5,894 bases of DNA from Nanopusillaceae archaeon (lineage in GTDB: Archaea; Nanobdellota; Nanobdellia; Nanobdellales; Nanobdellaceae). Below, piece by piece: positions 1 through 5,894 of this stretch. The translations under genes and the position numbers were made by a program. A model generated the notes under the pieces. That model did not search any database, was not told the origin of the DNA, and saw only the letters and a list, made by a program, of their open reading frames with translations. Position 1 is the first letter of the stretch. Each line of letters opens with the position of its first letter. The DNA lies in assembly GCA_049973735.1 (NCBI GenBank), contig JBMFJL010000036.1, forward strand, positions 1-5,894, read 5' to 3'.

Positions 1-64
1 CACACATCCTTCCAGCTTCTCTTCCCCTTAATTTTACACATACTCTACCAACTTGTAAGACCAT
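1..64 (-). CDS. rpl14e: 50S ribosomal protein L14e, N-terminal 21 codons (partial; continues beyond the left edge)
   Basis: The reverse complement of 1..64 reads ATG GTC TTA CAA GTT GGT AGA GTA TGT GTA AAA TTA AGG GGA AGA GAA GCT GGA AGG ATG TGT G, which is MVLQVGRVCVKLRGREAGRMC(V..). This matches the conserved N-terminal motif of archaeal L14e as I recall it (..VGRxCVKxxGREAGxxCV..). The + strand is unusually pyrimidine-rich here, so the - strand is purine-rich, as coding strands are elsewhere in this window. The ORF is too short to appear in the supplied track. Confidence 0.7.
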   Translation of the reverse strand, partial: MVLQVGRVCVKLRGREAGRMC

Positions 65-69
65 TTTTA

Positions 70-363
70 TTGATTAATAGTAAAAAATCTGTAGAAGAAT
101 TTAAATATCATGAGTATGTTAAAATGTGGAGAAAATTTACATGGGAAGAATTTGCAAATGGGTATCTAGAAAAGGTTAAAGAAAGAATTAAAAATGGTGA
201 TAAAACTGCAAAATGGGTAGTATATAATGTTTATAAAGCTATACTAGTCTTCTTGCATCCTATAATACCATTTGTTACCGAATATATATATCAAAAATTG
301 TATGGAGAAAAGAGTACTATACTAGAAGAAAAATTTGAAAATTTACTTAAAGCCTTCAGCTAG
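70..363 (+). CDS. Orphan ORF matching only the C-terminal anticodon-binding helical segment of a class Ia (ValRS-type) aminoacyl-tRNA synthetase; the catalytic body is absent at this locus (split-gene half or gene relic)
   Basis: The segment EFKYHEYVKMWRKFTWEEFANGYLEKVKERIK..AKWVVYNVYKAILVFLHPIIPFVTEYIYQKL follows the ValRS/IleRS C-terminal pattern (..F.W..FcD.YlE..K.Rl...a...ly.vl...l.LLhPfmPFitEEiwq.l). The start is uncertain: TTG at 70 lies only 5 nt from the divergent L14e ATG, and the first ATG is at 124 (80 aa). About 97 stop-free codons are unlikely by chance in DNA this AT-rich. No TATA-like box sits at the 24-nt spacing seen for other first genes here. A T6 run (372-377) follows the stop. 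Confidence 0.55.
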   Translation: MINSKKSVEEFKYHEYVKMWRKFTWEEFANGYLEKVKERIKNGDKTAKWVVYNVYKAILVFLHPIIPFVTEYIYQKLYGEKSTILEEKFENLLKAFS

Positions 364-1005
364 TTCTTTAATTTTTTCATAAAAATTAGGCGCTTTTGCT
401 ACTGCAGATGCAAGTAAAACCCCTTCTGCACCCAATTCAATTGCCCTTTTTACATCATCTTTATTACTTATTCCTGCTCCAACTAATAATTTTACTCTTG
501 GATTTGCTTCCTTTATCATTCTTACAGAGTTTACAATTATATCTGGTTTTGCTTTAGAAACCGAAATTCCAGTACCTATTAATTCTGGAGGCTCTATGGC
601 TATATAATCTGGATCTAATTTTGCTAGAGCAGAACCAACTAAATTATCATTAGCACATACAATGGTTTTTAATCCTAATTTTTTAGCTATCTCTATGATT
701 TTTTCTATTTCACTTATTTTTAATTGTCTTTCAGAATGATTGACCAAAGTTCCGACCGCACCGGCCTCTTTGACTGCTTCAGGTAGTATATGACCAGTAA
801 ATGCACCAGACTCTATTGGATCGATATGTTGAGCAAAGATTTTAACTCTTTTAGCTCTCTGAGACAATAAATATATATCAGTAAACTGTGGCGCAATAAC
901 TATTTCTATTCCATATTCGCTAACAACCCTTTCTGCAGCTTCTAATAATTCCAATCCCTTTTTTCCTATTGTTTCTTTATATGCTTTCAGATTTATAACT
1001 AGCAT
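343..1005 (-). CDS. tpiA: Triosephosphate isomerase, short (~220 aa) archaeal type
   Basis: The 220-aa ORF aligns end to end, from memory, with archaeal TIMs such as the Methanocaldococcus enzyme. Catalytic positions are present: Lys in INLKAY, His in VNHSE, Glu in AIEPPELIGTG. The GAGIS phosphate-binding loop and the C-terminal GVLLASAV motif are also there. Confidence 0.95.
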   Translation of the reverse strand: MLVINLKAYKETIGKKGLELLEAAERVVSEYGIEIVIAPQFTDIYLLSQRAKRVKIFAQHIDPIESGAFTGHILPEAVKEAGAVGTLVNHSERQLKISEIEKIIEIAKKLGLKTIVCANDNLVGSALAKLDPDYIAIEPPELIGTGISVSKAKPDIIVNSVRMIKEANPRVKLLVGAGISNKDDVKRAIELGAEGVLLASAVAKAPNFYEKIKELAEGFK

Positions 1006-1028
1006 AAAATAATAATATGACCTTCTTT

Positions 1029-1050
1029 ATTTATAAAATATTTATAAAAT
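1029..1050. promoter_or_regulatory. Perfect tandem duplication ATTTATAAAAT x2, each copy holding a palindromic TATA-box-like 8-mer TTTATAAA; candidate paired promoters for divergent tpiA and the ATPase gene
   Basis: Units 1029-1039 and 1040-1050 are identical. TTTATAAA (1030-1037 and 1041-1048) is its own reverse complement. The left 8-mer is separated by exactly 24 nt (1006-1029) from the tpiA ATG (A at 1005, - strand). The right 8-mer is separated by exactly 24 nt (1049-1072) from the ATPase ATG (1073). That spacing fits archaeal TATA-to-TSS distances combined with leaderless mRNAs. Confidence 0.5.
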
Positions 1051-1072
1051 TCTCAGACCATAACTCGTTATA

Positions 1073-3640
1073 ATGTGGCATTCTTTACCGATCGAAGAAG
1101 TATTAAGAAGACTTAATACATCTTTAAATGGTCTAACCGATGAAGAAGTAAAAAATAGATTAAAAATATATGGAAAAAATGAAATAAAATTAAAAGAGGA
1201 ATCATTAATATTTAAAATTATTGAAATTATAAAAAATCCTTTTTTATTATTATTTATATTTGCAGATATAATATCATTTATTTTTCAAGGGTTTATAGAT
1301 GGAATTGCTATTTTCATGTTTCTATTACTATACATTATCTTTGACCTAATAAATGAAAGAAGATACAGTAAAATAATAAAATCTTTGATGAAAAGCATAG
1401 AAAAAGATGTAATGGTTGTAAGAAATGGGACAATAACACATGTAAAGGCTTCAGAAATTGTGCCTGGTGACATAATAATACTTAGGTATGGAGAATTTGT
1501 ACCTGCAGACATTAGGATTATAGAGGAAAAAGATTTGGAAGTTGATGAAAGTGCATTGACCGGAGAAAGCGATCCTGTAAGAAAAAAAGTAGACATAGTA
1601 TCTACAAATGCACCGGTAAAGGATAGAATAAATATGCTTTTTTTCGGAACACATATTGTAAGAGGCTATTGCAAAGGAGTTGTTGTAGCTACAGGAAACA
1701 ATACTTATTATGGAAGTATATATAAGAATTTAGAAAAAGAGAAAAGAGAGAAAACTTTATTACAGATTGAATTAGAAAAGTTCTCTGTTTATATGACTGT
1801 AATTGTAGTTATAATAATGATAATTTCTGCAATTTATATTTATATATTTAATATACTACCATTAAACCAATTGCTAATATTTGTTGTAGCAATTGGAGTA
1901 CTTGTAATTCCAGAAGGTTTGCCTGCAGCCCTAACACTAATATATGCCCTTAGTGTAGATAAATTAAGAAGAGAAAATATATTTGTCAAAAATCCAAATA
2001 TATTAGAGGATTTGGGTAATGTTGACACAGTAATTCTAGACAAAACAGGAACTTTATCATATAATTATATAGATTTAAAGGGCTTTTATTTCAATGGAAA
2101 AATTTACAAAGTAAAATATGAAGATAACAAGATAAAAATACTTAAAAAAGATAAAGAAGTTGATTTAAACGGTTTACAGGTATTTCTAACTTTTTTATAC
2201 AATTCTATTGATGATTACAGTTATGATATATATGAAAATGGTTTTGGAAACCCAATAAATCTAGCTATATATAGGGTAGGTAAACAATTAAACTTAAAAT
2301 TTTTAGAAAGAATAGATGTAAACTATTTTGATTCTTATAGAAAAAGATCATCAGTCATAGTAAATTATGAAGGTAAAAAATACTCTATAGTAAAAGGTTC
2401 TGTAGATTCGATCATAAAAATATCTAAATATATATATTTAGATAATGAAATAAAAGAAATTAACAAAAATATAGACAAAATAAAAAACATAACTGAAAAA
2501 TATAGCAAAAAAGGATTTAAAATATTGGCTTTAGGCATAAAAATCCTAGATAATGATAACGATGTAGAAAAAGATGTAATTTTTTATGGAATTATATTGC
2601 TCAAAGAGAAAATTAGGAAAGGTGTCAAGAATTACATTGATTTTCTAAAGTTTTTAAATTTAAATATTTATATAGTTACTGGTGATAATAGGGAGAATAC
2701 GGAAAATTTGCTTAAAATTTTGAAGCTTAATTTTAAAGTAAAAGATGCTAGAGAAATAAAAAAACTTAATGATGAAGAATTATATAAATTGTTAAAAAAC
2801 TATAATGCAATCGTAAATGCAGATCCTGAAGATAAGTATAGAATAGTAAAAGTATTAAAGAAAAAGGGACATAGAGTCTTGTTCGTTGGTGATGGTATAA
2901 ATGATTCTATAGCAATGAAAATATCAAATGTTGGCGTATCTTTTTACAATGCCGCAGATATAACTAAAGATTCTGCAAATGTATTATTATTAGATGAAGG
3001 AATAGAGGCAATTGTAGAATTGATAAAGGAGGGAAAGAGGATTATATATAGCCTAAAAACTTATATAGTAACAGTATTGTCTGCTATTATTGGTATATTT
3101 TTATTTATGGTAATAGGATTCTTCGTATATAAGCAAATATTCTTAGAATCTCTACAGCTATTGTTATTAAATTTGGTTGCAGAAACTATATTTTCAATAA
3201 CTATCAATGTATCGGAAGTAAAAGATGAAAAAATGTATAAACAATTAGATAATCGACTATTTGACAAAAATATAATCTATAATTTCATTAGAAATGCTAT
3301 TTTCATAGGATTAAACAGTGTGATAGTCGCATTAGCAACATTTAATAATGTTTATACTATCATGTTATTCTTAATTGTTTCTCAAGCTATATTATTAATG
3401 TATTACGAAAAGAAATTTAATTTATCTATAACTTCAAGCAAACAATATTATATTTCTATATTCCTATCCGTTATGATAATATCTATATTCTTATTACCAT
3501 ATTTAAGAGATCTTATAGGATTTGTCATACCAGCTATGATAGATATTTCCGTATTTGTCATCGTTGCCCTATATATGTATGCAATATTTGAAATATTATA
3601 TAGAGTAGAAAAATCAGCGGTATCTGAACATCTTCATTAA
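1073..3640 (+). CDS. P-type cation-transporting ATPase (P2/P3-like, about 10 predicted TM helices); transported ion unresolved
   Basis: The N-terminus is of the Cation_ATPase_N type (HSLPIEEVLRRLNTSLNGLTDEEVKNRLKIYGKNEI). All core motifs are present: A-domain LTGESDPV, M4 IPEGLPAALT, phosphorylation site ILDKTGTLS, N-domain FDSYRKRSSV and VKGS, then IVTGDN, ADPEDKYRIV and VGDGINDSIAMK. Hydrophobic segments fit M1-M10. Confidence 0.93.
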   Translation: MWHSLPIEEVLRRLNTSLNGLTDEEVKNRLKIYGKNEIKLKEESLIFKIIEIIKNPFLLLFIFADIISFIFQGFIDGIAIFMFLLLYIIFDLINERRYSKIIKSLMKSIEKDVMVVRNGTITHVKASEIVPGDIIILRYGEFVPADIRIIEEKDLEVDESALTGESDPVRKKVDIVSTNAPVKDRINMLFFGTHIVRGYCKGVVVATGNNTYYGSIYKNLEKEKREKTLLQIELEKFSVYMTVIVVIIMIISAIYIYIFNILPLNQLLIFVVAIGVLVIPEGLPAALTLIYALSVDKLRRENIFVKNPNILEDLGNVDTVILDKTGTLSYNYIDLKGFYFNGKIYKVKYEDNKIKILKKDKEVDLNGLQVFLTFLYNSIDDYSYDIYENGFGNPINLAIYRVGKQLNLKFLERIDVNYFDSYRKRSSVIVNYEGKKYSIVKGSVDSIIKISKYIYLDNEIKEINKNIDKIKNITEKYSKKGFKILALGIKILDNDNDVEKDVIFYGIILLKEKIRKGVKNYIDFLKFLNLNIYIVTGDNRENTENLLKILKLNFKVKDAREIKKLNDEELYKLLKNYNAIVNADPEDKYRIVKVLKKKGHRVLFVGDGINDSIAMKISNVGVSFYNAADITKDSANVLLLDEGIEAIVELIKEGKRIIYSLKTYIVTVLSAIIGIFLFMVIGFFVYKQIFLESLQLLLLNLVAETIFSITINVSEVKDEKMYKQLDNRLFDKNIIYNFIRNAIFIGLNSVIVALATFNNVYTIMLFLIVSQAILLMYYEKKFNLSITSSKQYYISIFLSVMIISIFLLPYLRDLIGFVIPAMIDISVFVIVALYMYAIFEILYRVEKSAVSEHLH

Positions 3641-3664
3641 TCAGGAATCTCTGACCTTCATCAT
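3614..3664 (-). ncRNA. Candidate box C/D sRNA (2'-O-methylation guide RNA), antisense to the last 9 codons and stop codon of the ATPase gene and extending into the intergenic spacer
   Basis: The - strand reads AUGAUGA (C, 3664-3658), AGGUCAGAGAUUC (13 nt), CUGA (D', 3644-3641), UUA, AUGAAGA (C' with one mismatch, 3637-3631), UGUUCAGAUACCG (13 nt), CUGA (D, 3617-3614). The total is 51 nt with two equal spacers. It is flanked by AAAAA (3669-3665) and UUUUU (3613-3609), which could form a terminal stem; the U5 could also act as a terminator. An A/T-only block (3686-3698) lies about 25-30 nt upstream on the - strand. I checked every other TGATGA/TCATCA site in the window, and none has a CUGA at guide spacing. 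Confidence 0.6.
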
Positions 3665-3680
3665 TTTTTATTAATTTTAT
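3664..3680 (+). promoter_or_regulatory. A/T block acting as a candidate TATA element for the GT2 gene; its T6 run (3664-3669) is also a candidate oligo-T terminator for the ATPase gene
   Basis: TTTTTTATTAATTTTAT ends about 17-24 nt upstream of the GT2 ATG (3697). TTTATTAA at 3667-3674 is 22 nt from the ATG, close to the 24-nt spacing at the tpiA/ATPase promoters. The T6 run starts 24 nt after the ATPase stop. This is weak evidence given the AT-rich background. Confidence 0.35.
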
Positions 3681-3696
3681 CTGACATATTTTTTAT

Positions 3697-4821
3697 ATGT
3701 ATAATAAAGTATCTTTTATATTTCCTATTTATAAAGATAGTGAAGCTATAGAAGATAATATTAAAAGAATATTTGAAGATAATTACCCAAACGATTTAAA
3801 AGAAATTATAGTTGCTGTGGACGTACCTACAGAAAATTTCATGGAAAAAATCAAAAAAATAAAAAGCAAATATAAAAATGTAAAATTTATAATATCGAAA
3901 GAAAGGAGGGGAAAAGTTGCTGCAACTAATGATGCTGTAAAATATTCTACTGGCGACATATTAGTTTTTATTGATGCAGACGCCTCTATAGTACATATAG
4001 ATTTACAATCTTTAGTAAAAGAAGTAAATGAATATGGTTTAGTAGAATTTTACAAAGATATGGAAAGAAAAGGGATAATAGGTAATATGCTTCATCTAGA
4101 GTATTCTATGTATTATGACATATTATCTATCATAAATAATAAGAGAAAAAAATCTTTAGGTGTCAATGGAGCTGGTTTTTCTGTTAAGAGAGAGATATTT
4201 GAAAAAGTTGGGGGATTTACTAGAGTCTATGTAGAAGATTTAGACTTTGCCATTAAGGCTCAAAAAGCAGGAAGTAAATATTATTTATCTAAATCTGTAA
4301 TTTTAAAAATAAAGCCGTTAGAAACTTTAAAACAGTTAATAGATCAAAAAAAGAGATGGACTTTCGGTGCTATAGAATTTGCTTTAAATCATTTTGACTT
4401 TTTTATTAAATATTTTATTGAAGATCCATTTTCTAGTATGGTTTTGATATTAATATTCTTTTTTCCATACATTTTGTTTTTCTATATATACTTCTTAATC
4501 CCATTATCTTATATATATGATATTGCAATAAAATTATACGAAAATTTTTTAGCTAATATAAATATAATATATGTTGCGCTAGTCAATCCTTTCTCTTTCT
4601 ATCAATTTTTCTCTGCAATTTATCTCACAATACTTTATATTGTAATATCTACCACTTATACTTTTTTACTATTTTCCATCGCCAAGAAAAAATTATATAA
4701 CCCGATATACTTTTTCATCTTATCCGTATTCTATGTACCTTTGTATGAGATAATCTTTATATACGTTTTGATATATTATGTTTTATTCGAAATGCCTCCA
4801 AAGATGAACTGGAAGGTCTAA
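3697..4821 (+). CDS. Membrane-integrated family-2 glycosyltransferase with the processive-type D,D,D,Q-x-x-R-W signature and a C-terminal multi-TM domain
   Basis: The N-terminus has a GT-A fold signature (VSFIFPIYKDSEAIEDNIKRI..YPNDLKEIIVAVD, then GKVAATNDAVKYSTGDILVFIDADA with the DxD motif). This is followed by GAGFSVKREIFEKVGGF, VEDLDFAIKA and QKKRWTFG (QxxRW). The last ~140 aa are strongly hydrophobic, about 4-5 TM segments. An in-frame TGA at 3682-3684 makes 3697 the first possible ATG. Confidence 0.9.
   Translation: MYNKVSFIFPIYKDSEAIEDNIKRIFEDNYPNDLKEIIVAVDVPTENFMEKIKKIKSKYKNVKFIISKERRGKVAATNDAVKYSTGDILVFIDADASIVHIDLQSLVKEVNEYGLVEFYKDMERKGIIGNMLHLEYSMYYDILSIINNKRKKSLGVNGAGFSVKREIFEKVGGFTRVYVEDLDFAIKAQKAGSKYYLSKSVILKIKPLETLKQLIDQKKRWTFGAIEFALNHFDFFIKYFIEDPFSSMVLILIFFFPYILFFYIYFLIPLSYIYDIAIKLYENFLANINIIYVALVNPFSFYQFFSAIYLTILYIVISTTYTFLLFSIAKKKLYNPIYFFILSVFYVPLYEIIFIYVLIYYVLFEMPPKMNWKV
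4811..4817 (+). promoter_or_regulatory. Shine-Dalgarno-like GGAAGGT upstream of the RNase Z start
   Basis: GGAAGGT partially matches the GGAGGT-type SD. It lies 3 nt before ATG 4821 and 6 nt before ATG 4824. This fits a distal operon gene using an SD while first genes look leaderless. The better spacing suggests the second ATG (4824) may be the real start. Confidence 0.4.
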
Positions 4822-5795
4822 TGATGAAACTATATATATTAGGAACAGCTTCTGCATTTCCAACAAAAAAGAGAAATCACCCTGGAATATTTATGAAATA
4901 TTTAGACAAAGGTATATTGTTTGATGCTGGCGAAAATATACAAAGACAAATGAGAATTGCAGGTTTATCTCCTACAGATATTGATATAATATTAATAACA
5001 CATTGGCATGGAGATCATATGCTAGGATTGCCTGGAATCTTATTTAGCTTATCCAATATGGAATATAAAAGAGAACTAAATATTATACTACCCAGAGAAA
5101 ACTTTGAAGATTTTTATAAATTAATGGACGGATTGAATATTCCGATTGAATTCAATATAAATTTAATAGAGGCAAAAAACGGATTGATATATGAAGATGA
5201 TAAATTCGAAATATATGGTATAGAGACTAGACATTCTGTAAAATCTTTTTCTTATTACTTTAAAGAGAAAGAATATATAAAAATAGATAAAGAAAAATTA
5301 AGATATTACAATTTATCTGTAAATCAAATAAAGAAAATAAAAAAAGGAGAAAAAATCTTTTATAATGGAAAAGAAATTGATTTCAATGATATTGGATATA
5401 TTAGAAAGGGTATAAAGATCTCATACATAACGGATACGATATTTTTTGAAGATCTAATAAAATTTGCTGAAAATAGTACTATTCTAATATGCGAATCTAC
5501 ATTTTTCTTCGATCCAGAAAAAGCTAAAGAACATTACCATATGGACTTTACAGAAGTTTTAAAGTTATATTTAGAAAGTAAAAGTAAAATATTGCTATTG
5601 ACTCATTTTAGCCAAAGATATGAAGAAGAACTGGATAAAATAAAAAAGGATATAGAGGAAAAATATGATGATGTATATATATTAAATGACTTCGATAGGA
5701 TAGAAATAGAAAAAAACATTATAAGTTTATACTTATCTAATAAATTAGTTAAATATAAATTTGATGAAAAAACTGGTTATGTTTTAAGAATATAG
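4821..5795 (+). CDS. rnz: Ribonuclease Z (tRNA 3' endonuclease), metallo-beta-lactamase fold, short form
   Basis: The N-terminus KLYILGTASAFPTKKRNHPGIFMKY..GILFDAGENIQRQM..IDIILITHWHGDHMLGLPGILFS matches the RNase Z consensus, including HxHxDH. Downstream metal ligands are plausible: TRHSV, ISYITDT, EHYHMDF and LLLTHFSQRY. The start overlaps the GT2 stop (TAATG, 4819-4823). Confidence 0.93.
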   Translation: MMKLYILGTASAFPTKKRNHPGIFMKYLDKGILFDAGENIQRQMRIAGLSPTDIDIILITHWHGDHMLGLPGILFSLSNMEYKRELNIILPRENFEDFYKLMDGLNIPIEFNINLIEAKNGLIYEDDKFEIYGIETRHSVKSFSYYFKEKEYIKIDKEKLRYYNLSVNQIKKIKKGEKIFYNGKEIDFNDIGYIRKGIKISYITDTIFFEDLIKFAENSTILICESTFFFDPEKAKEHYHMDFTEVLKLYLESKSKILLLTHFSQRYEEELDKIKKDIEEKYDDVYILNDFDRIEIEKNIISLYLSNKLVKYKFDEKTGYVLRI

Positions 5796-5894
5796 CAATT
5801 CTTCGAGTTCTCTTTTTAGTTCTTCTAACTCTCTGGAAATTTCATCCAATTCTTTCTTTACATTTTCTTTGATATCTTTTTGCTCAGCATCTTC
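5784..5894 (-). CDS. C-terminal 36 codons of an unidentified, highly charged coiled-coil-like protein (partial; start lies beyond the right edge)
   Basis: The reverse complement from 5894 reads EDAEQKDIKENVKKELDEISRELEELKRELEELLYS, followed by TAA (5786-5784). The other two - strand frames hit stops within about 12 codons. The - strand is purine-rich here, like other coding strands in the window. No family assignment is possible from 36 residues. Confidence 0.4.
   Translation of the reverse strand, partial: EDAEQKDIKENVKKELDEISRELEELKRELEELLYS

Follow-up and report, generated by a model that had tools for sequence, protein, structure and literature searches.

A predicted box C/D methylation-guide RNA gene antisense to the 3′ end of a P-type ATPase gene in Nanopusillaceae archaea

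The Nanopusillaceae belong to the DPANN archaea and are relatives of Nanoarchaeum equitans, in whose lineage box C/D small RNAs (sRNAs) are known to operate. N. equitans sRNA26, represented by 55,200 RNA-seq reads (Randau 2012, PMC3491384; NeqsR26 in Dennis et al. 2015, PMC4644070), has the sequence AA-AUGAUGA-UCGUUUACCGGCA-CUGA-UUA-GUGAUGU-GGUUCAGGUACCGG-CUGA and a D guide assigned to 23S-1955 (CCGGUmACCUGAACCC). Two other N. equitans sRNAs, sRNA11 (D′, 23S-2003) and sRNA22 (D, 23S-2010), target helix 69 of 23S rRNA; at the subunit interface, helices 68, 69 and 71 have been documented as hotspots of archaeal methylation. Among the sRNA genes of Pyrobaculum, 3′-antisense overlap with a protein gene is one of three major overlap categories (‘category 3’), 40 of 47 overlapping guides keep their rRNA targets, and guides are described that migrate to new targets by insertion or deletion or become orphans by drift (Lui et al. 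2018, PMC6009581). Here we analyse a 5,894-nt stretch of DNA from a Nanopusillaceae archaeon (the window; assembly GCA_049973735.1, contig JBMFJL010000036.1, positions 1 to 5,894 of the forward strand), in which a 51-nt minus-strand element (3664..3614) runs antisense across the stop codon of a P-type cation ATPase gene. Judging from comparative sequence evidence, we consider this element, with a probability of about 0.9, to be the gene for an archaeal box C/D methylation-guide RNA. It is apparently an undescribed member of a well-known class, in a genomic arrangement that has already been documented.

The element has the layout AUGAUGA-N13-CUGA-UUA-AUGAAGA-N13-CUGA, that is, boxes C, D′, C′ and D around two 13-nt spacers, exactly as the initial annotation had read it; with its flanks (3669..3609) the minus strand reads AAAAA-AUGAUGA-AGGUCAGAGAUUC-CUGA-UUA-AUGAAGA-UGUUCAGAUACCG-CUGA-UUUUU. 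It carries the marks of the class: RUGAUGA is close to the 5′ end and CUGA close to the 3′ end, D′ and C′ boxes lie between them, and the spacers are of constrained length (~12 nt), with 13 and 13 nt in the window and 12–14 nt in the orthologues described below. A relaxed scan (UGAUGA, spacers of 10–14 nt, a linker of 2–9 nt and C′ with at most one mismatch) returned a single site in the window and none in simulated sequence (0/3000 first-order Markov windows), in line with earlier claims that such an array is very unlikely by chance and that no other C-box-like site in the window shows it. A strict C/D scan of 166 kb of nanoarchaeal loci found nothing beyond orthologues of this sRNA.

Both the position and the sequence of the element are conserved. 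The syntenic contigs that we fetched encode ATPase homologues 41–58% identical to that of the window and include two complete genomes, AP031373.1 (L045) and Nanobdella aerobiophila AP019769.1 (L049). All fetched orthologous loci have the same synteny, and a minus-strand C/D sRNA is present at the junction between the ATPase gene and the gene for a family-2 glycosyltransferase (GT2) in 9/9. A look-up of exact matches to the window ATPase protein gave nothing. Scanning genome contigs with the window ATPase returned only distant relatives (at most 38% identity), among them a locus from a metagenome-assembled genome (MAG; L001, ATPase 38% identical) that also carries the sRNA. Box residues are invariant in an alignment of 11 sequences, in which C′ is AUGAUGA, AUGAUGU or GUGAUGU in orthologues and AUGAAGA in the window. 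The window sRNA is on average 80% identical to its orthologues (range 74–88%), compared with 63–69% for the flanks (adjacent ATPase coding sequence, remaining intergenic sequence and GT2 5′ end). The boxes are conserved while the ATPase tails vary, the pattern that had been proposed as a check on the prediction.

The D guide finds a target in the rRNA of relatives. Guides were scored by contiguous Watson–Crick runs that cover the nucleotide opposite guide position 5 (N+5); this score replaced counts of paired positions and G·U-tolerant runs, which discriminated weakly. With the 23S rRNA of AP031373.1 (L174), the window D guide forms 12 contiguous Watson–Crick pairs, including position 5, at CGGUAUCUGAAC (large-subunit (LSU) rRNA position 1925), a result equalled by 1/1000 shuffled guides; with Nanopusillus 23S rRNA (L123) it forms 11 Watson–Crick pairs and one G·U pair. 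The D guide of the AP031373.1 orthologue (L045) pairs with its own rRNA at the same LSU 1925 over 11 contiguous Watson–Crick pairs (again, 1/1000 shuffles were as good), and in the AP031373.1 23S and 16S rRNAs this is the sole site at which either guide has a run of at least 9. The target sequence predicted earlier for the D guide, CGGUAmUCUGAAC, is thus present in family 23S rRNA, and the same D guide sequence occurs in L170. The window D guide is accordingly predicted to target the helix 68 region in domain IV of 23S rRNA, with the equivalent of A1848 as N+5. Escherichia coli numbering follows the E. coli row of a published alignment, anchored on A1912. A D guide of 13 rather than 14 nt moves N+5 from U1847 to A1848.

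Guide and target also covary across lineages. The D guide core is UUCACGUACC opposite 23S GGUACGUGAA in Crenarchaeota, UUCAGGUACC opposite GGUACCUGAA in N. equitans and UUCAGAUACC opposite GGUAUCUGAA in Nanopusillaceae. Variation inside the family also agrees with a working guide: in L171, L172 and L001 the D guide is of the G type, which suits the GGUACCUGAA variant found in L175 and L176, and D guide position 12 forms a G:C pair in AP031373 and an A:U pair in Nanopusillus (L047 and L173 with L123).

Set beside N. equitans sRNA26, the window element has the same succession of box C, 13-nt guide, CUGA, UUA linker, box C′, 13–14-nt guide and CUGA, and a homologous D guide (GGUUCAGGUACCGG in N. 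equitans, UGUUCAGAUACCG in the window) directed to the same 23S site, with one internal G/A difference that is compensated by C/U in the rRNA. By contrast, the D′ guide of sRNA26, UCGUUUACCGGCA, is unrelated and targets 23S-1989, between the two sites discussed here; its D guide is 1 nt longer, giving N+5 at U1847 rather than A1848; and its gene lies between NEQ455 and NEQ457, not at an ATPase gene. Because the D′ guide of sRNA26 addresses a different site, the D′ guide has been replaced in one of the lineages. The D guide of Pyrobaculum calidifontis sR124 (PCAsR124) and Thermoproteus tenax sR133 (TtesR133), UUCACGUACCGG, targets this 23S site as well (Dennis et al. 2015, supplement), its CG matching CG in the crenarchaeal rRNA GGUACGUGAA. 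These two sRNAs belong to another phylum and have other D′ guides, and the likeness reflects either common descent or convergence on a hotspot. The window element therefore shares with this guide family (23S U1847 site) a D guide aimed at GGUA(NN)UGAA, and differs from it in its D′ guide and in the nucleotide that would be methylated.

The rRNA sequences used in these comparisons were reached in different ways. A metagenome scan for a pattern that combines both target 10-mers (GGTAYCTGAA-N30-60-WAWCTCTGAC) matched at least 120 loci; ~105 among the matches listed represent one conserved archaeal 23S gene with a fixed 41-nt gap, and 3/3 pattern-scan loci tested with Rfam are archaeal LSU rRNA. 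L123 is a Nanopusillus contig (FlaI 98% identical to that of Nanopusillus sp.) with complete 23S and 16S genes. As the pattern-scan loci had been selected by the target pattern, we obtained independent rRNA for the test: the 23S and 16S genes of AP031373.1 (L174) were reached through FlaI, which adjoins the 23S gene (homologue P0195), and not through the target pattern, and they come from the same genome as the sRNA locus L045. In a published 23S alignment (Dennis et al. 2015, PMC4644070), the N. equitans site reads GCCGGUACCUGAACC; helix 69 comes ~50 nt later, as GUAACUGUAACUC in that species and as GUAACUCUGACCC in crenarchaea.

In the orthologues, the second guide points to that helix. Their D′ guides, (A/C/U)GGUCAGAGUUAG, form 11 contiguous Watson–Crick pairs with GUAACUCUGACC of the 23S rRNA, either their own or that of the family, and 11–13 pairs overall with the helix 69 loop (UAACUCUGACC), with N+5 at C1914, 51 nt downstream of the D site. 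The numbering was also anchored on the known helix 69 pseudouridines. For L045 and its own AP031373.1 rRNA, the D′ site is LSU 1976 (helix 69), with 11 contiguous Watson–Crick pairs, the sole run of at least 9, and 1/1000 shuffles as good. The D′ guide of L170 is shifted by 1 nt, which gives 13 pairs and moves N+5 to U1915, and an A-to-G change in that of L173 yields a G·U pair. The Nanopusillaceae D′ guide thereby aims at the same stem-loop as N. equitans sRNA11 and sRNA22, which address the equivalents of G1910 and U1917 from separate sRNAs, rather than C1914 (U1915 in L170).

The targets bear on the internal repeat that the initial annotation had described. The two 24-nt halves of the element are indeed identical at 17/24 positions, but 10 of these matches are supplied by the boxes, and the shared UCAGA arises because both rRNA targets contain UCUGA (GGUA-UCUGA and GGUAAC-UCUGA). 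Duplication of the D half, with later retargeting of the copy to helix 69 as the D′ half, is possible, as both rRNA sites read GGUA..UCUGA, and is unproven.

The other partner of the sRNA gene is the ATPase gene. Half of the element is intergenic, and the RNA is an exact complement of the final ~27 nt of the ATPase open reading frame (ORF) and of the start of its 3′ untranslated region; the plus-strand complement of box D, TCAG, supplies a Ser codon and part of an Ala codon. This antisense overlap is kept in 9/9 fetched syntenic loci (the L001 ATPase stop was not mapped). Two stop sites are used. L045, L046, L047, L173, L049 and L171 terminate the ATPase within the D-guide complement (..GGTATCTGA), at a TGA 1–3 nt 3′ of the N+5 nucleotide in the D-guide duplex; in these six orthologues, the stop is the UGA of the same UCUGA to which the guide is complementary in rRNA. 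For L170, L172 and the window, it is instead a TAA or TAG in the D′–C′ linker. Because both stop sites lie in the sRNA complement, the last 4–9 ATPase codons are dictated by the sRNA sequence: the tails ..VEKSAVSEHLH, ..LEKFENVRGI and ..YIERSAGT are translations of that complement, which bears out the earlier suggestion that the tail may be no more than translation through the sRNA gene on the other strand. The overlap is conserved among orthologues and the ATPase reading frame through it is not; a tail with two frames and two stop positions suggests that the protein accommodates the sRNA, not the reverse.

Such a 3′ antisense overlap is a known category and no oddity. As in Pyrobaculum category 3, the 3′ half of the sRNA, including the D guide, is antisense to the 3′ end of an ORF and the overlapping guide keeps its rRNA target, and the shift of N+5 between 13- and 14-nt D guides is the target migration of Lui et al. 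(2018). The present case differs in that it occurs in DPANN archaea, is kept family-wide and involves an ORF with two alternative frames and stops in the sRNA complement.

Transcription of the sRNA would start in the ATPase–GT2 intergenic region and proceed towards the ATPase gene. A minus-strand TATAAA is a suggestive promoter candidate: box-A-like hexamers lie 25–33 nt upstream of box C in 8/10 orthologues versus 15% of random positions, counted with a motif set that was picked after viewing the sequences and in orthologues that are not independent. In N. equitans, transcription starts ~26 nt downstream of box A (TTTAAA). The window hexamer directly abuts the GT2 start codon (3692–3699; CAT on the minus strand), which leaves no space upstream for a separate GT2 promoter except within the sRNA gene; GT2 is probably co-transcribed with the ATPase gene, antisense to the sRNA. 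The region 3′ of box D is T-rich in most orthologues, and the U5 tract is a possible terminator that would fit the T-stretch terminators described for small RNA genes of N. equitans. The A5 and U5 flanks had also been proposed to close a terminal stem. They are complementary, but we reject the stem because it is not conserved: L045 can form a good one of 6 bp, whereas it is absent from L046, L049 and L001. The minimum free-energy fold of the sRNA is not better than that of shuffled sequences (z = −0.66), which is uninformative, as expected for a protein-scaffolded RNA. The ends of N. equitans C/D sRNAs have been reported as unpaired.

Once transcribed, the C/D and C′/D′ pairs would fold into a k-turn and a k-loop and recruit L7Ae, Nop5 and fibrillarin. 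A fibrillarin motif search of all fetched loci gave no match, and none of the genes for these three proteins lies in these loci; in N. equitans, fibrillarin (NEQ125) and NOP56 (NEQ342) have been reported. Pairing of the D guide with CGGUAUCUGAAC would bring fibrillarin to the residue that faces guide position 5, which is an A at approximately E. coli 1848. With both guides, the small ribonucleoprotein (sRNP) of an orthologue could hold two neighbouring segments of the subunit interface during ribosome assembly.

Table 1. Positions in the window of the predicted sRNA gene, its parts and the adjoining features.
Feature	Position	Strand	Remarks
A5 5′ flank, proposed U5 partner	3665..3669	−	Pairing not conserved among orthologues
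Box C, AUGAUGA	3658..3664	−	UGAUG invariant in the 11-sequence alignment; full-length Rfam archaeal C/D alignment
D′ guide AGGUCAGAGAUUC, 13 nt, N+5 = G3649	3645..3657	−	Predicted ancestral target, 23S helix 69 loop, C1914 (E. coli numbering)
Box D′, CUGA	3641..3644	−	Invariant in the 11-sequence alignment
D′–C′ linker UUA, complement of ATPase TAA stop	3638..3640	−	L170 (CUA/TAG) and L172 (UUA/TAA) alike
Box C′, AUGAAGA, U-to-A at fifth position	3631..3637	−	AUGAUGA, AUGAUGU or GUGAUGU in orthologues
D guide UGUUCAGAUACCG, 13 nt, N+5 = U3622	3618..3630	−	Predicted target, 23S CGGUAUCUGAAC, A at ~E. coli 1848, helix 68 region
Box D, CUGA	3614..3617	−	CUGA at the same position in every orthologue parsed
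U5 tract 3′ of box D	3609..3613	−	Possible archaeal oligo-T terminator or 3′ flank
TATAAA, candidate box A/TATA element	3692..3697	−	33 nt upstream of box C; overlaps GT2 start codon
P-type cation ATPase coding sequence, 855 amino acids	1073..3640	+	Assigned by Pfam; final 9 codons (SAVSEHLH*) lie antisense to box D, D guide, box C′ and linker
Family-2 glycosyltransferase (GT2) coding sequence	3697..4821	+	Downstream neighbour; bounds 56-nt intergenic region

The window, a whole contig from a genome of ~26% G+C, carries the 3′ end of ValRS, TIM (minus strand), the P-type ATPase, GT2 and an RNase Z-like metallo-β-lactamase, in this order. In Nanopusillus-type loci, a cassette of HEPN, nucleotidyltransferase and AAA_14/DUF4143 genes lies between ValRS and TIM (L047 7189–9222; L173 195–2227). 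This cassette is absent from the window and from L046; in L045, genes for AAA_14 and HEPN are found not at this junction but several genes upstream of ValRS. Two further Rfam matches in the window are weak. One, snR61-like (4816–4899, plus strand, E = 1.4), stems from the string TAATGATGA at the GT2 stop and RNase Z start; it has no D box and was judged to be chance. The other, CRISPR-DR40-like (5725–5754, minus strand, 23.6 bits, E = 4.6), occurs just once, within the RNase Z-like ORF, and is most likely chance.

The rRNA contigs yielded observations of their own. The 16S and 23S genes are unlinked, ~6 kb apart (with TGT, S19, two T2SSF and FlaI genes), in the same order in three Nanopusillaceae lineages (L123 1415–11783; L174 70–10455; L175). 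AP031373.1 has a match to archaeal RNase P RNA (L174 12259–12493, minus strand; 85.5 bits against a gathering score of 84) that adjoins ProRS; in this sister family the match is notable because N. equitans, to our knowledge, lacks RNase P. Several metagenomic archaeal 23S genes diverge right after helix 69 (CTCTGACTCT... instead of CTTAAGGTAGC; L053, L070, L076, L088, L142, L145, L159, L161, L162, L164 and L167), and in L053 (10272–14114) the LSU spans 3843 nt compared with a 2987-position model. These divergences are probably rRNA introns just 3′ of the D′ target site.

Some results weigh against the reading of the window element as a working methylation guide. Its D target was deduced from the rRNA of four relatives rather than from that of its own MAG, whose 23S rRNA would contain CGGUAUCUGAA if the reading is true. 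The N. aerobiophila orthologue (L049 12492–12541, minus strand) keeps the boxes and the D′ guide, and its D guide, AUUUAAACACCU, is unmatched in the 23S sequences compared, which did not include that of Nanobdella; if the same site is kept there, its 23S rRNA would read GGUGUUUAAAU. Searching with archaeal C/D covariance models, a check that the initial annotation had proposed, gave a divided result: in E-value mode, six Rfam families (sR5, sR3, sR2, sR1, sR23 and snoPyro_CD) align end to end with 3611–3668 on the minus strand (E = 0.07–0.3), but every match is below its gathering score (the best, sR5, has 22 bits against a 40-bit threshold, E = 0.073). The element is no member of sR5, sR3, sR2, snoPyro_CD or other curated Rfam C/D families; such sub-threshold scores are expected, because the models are built on particular guides. 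A search of the available literature found nothing on C/D sRNAs or fibrillarin in Nanopusillus or Nanobdella, and a full-text search for the guide strings returned unrelated primers only.

The D′ guide of the window adds to these points. The target predicted for it, GAAUCmUCUGACCU, was not found. Orthologous guides address UAACmUCUGACC in helix 69 (LSU 1976), where the window guide has 8 contiguous pairs and mismatches at guide positions 2 and 4, a score equalled by 152/1000 shuffles; of the two guides, for which complementarity of at least 9–10 nt had been expected, only the D guide with its 12 pairs reaches that length. At 3/4 nucleotides next to box D′ the window differs from all nine orthologues. 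Because helix 69 is identical in every Nanopusillaceae-lineage 23S rRNA compared (L123, L064, L174, L175 and L176), the mismatches are probably real. A 10-position match at LSU 1298 in a G·U-tolerant scan was judged spurious. No tRNA target fits among tRNA-Val, tRNA-Gly and tRNA-Pro, with ARAGORN line-split matches left unscored; GAAUC resembles a T-loop. We infer that the D′ arm of the window is probably weakened, orphaned or retargeted: the guide appears to have drifted and may be an orphan, and, if it has been retargeted, some RNA would contain GAAUCUCUGACC.

Could the D′ divergence be the first sign that the whole element is a decaying relic in this organism? A D′ score against rRNA no better than chance and the U-to-A change in C′ would agree with this, and orphan guides born of drift are documented (Lui et al. 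2018, PMC6009581), yet we regard decay as highly improbable. All four boxes are intact, the D guide shared with L170 has a perfect 12-bp match in family 23S rRNA, and the sRNA is more similar to its orthologues than the flanks are. The changed position in C′ corresponds to the tolerant looped-out nucleotide of the k-turn, where substitution is expected to do little harm. Moreover, pairing of the D guide alone is sufficient for the class, as single-guide sRNAs still count as functional box C/D members.

Another possibility is that the RNA acts in cis on the ATPase mRNA, besides or instead of rRNA. The sRNP would then engage the message through its D guide, and a duplex or a 2′-O-methyl group at, in or beside the stop codon would tune expression of the ATPase and possibly of co-transcribed GT2; if true, this would couple ribosome maturation to the expression of a cation pump. 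The conservation of the overlap in every syntenic locus and the six TGA stops within the D-guide duplex are compatible with such a role, which has been raised for 3′-antisense sRNAs (Lui et al. 2018, PMC6009581). We nevertheless think a function of the overlap very unlikely: what is conserved in the guides is their fit to rRNA, and they change together with rRNA rather than with the needs of the ATPase, the homologous sRNA26 gene sits between NEQ455 and NEQ457, and the two frames and stop positions of the ATPase tail suggest accommodation by the protein. Nor does a chance array of boxes, without any RNA function, explain the data. AT-rich sequence (G+C ~26%) under ATPase coding constraints might produce strings as short as UGAUGA and CUGA, and another C-box-like string occurs at 4821. 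However, the simulations produced no such array, ten loci conserve the motif although their ATPases are only 38–58% identical, half of the element is intergenic, and for each of two guides, at sites 51 nt apart, 1/1000 shuffles reaches the observed rRNA complementarity; a chance origin is effectively refuted. A box C/D methylation guide antisense across the ATPase stop, as the initial annotation had proposed, is the reading to which conservation, synteny, rRNA targets and the validated N. equitans homologue all point.

Read as a methylation guide, the element leaves the current understanding of C/D sRNAs unchanged. It would add an unannotated non-coding gene to a little-studied DPANN family (Nanopusillaceae/Nanobdellaceae), for which a C/D sRNA fixed at the ATPase–GT2 junction may serve as a family-wide marker. 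It predicts two 2′-O-methylation sites at the subunit interface, in the helix 68 region and in the helix 69 loop, that could be checked in cultured Nanobdella aerobiophila. The locus also offers a view of guide evolution, with covariation, target migration by one nucleotide, a D′ guide replaced in comparison with N. equitans and, in one lineage, a guide that seems to be drifting. It also shows how an sRNA gene can fix the C-terminal residues of the protein encoded opposite it, together with the stop codon.

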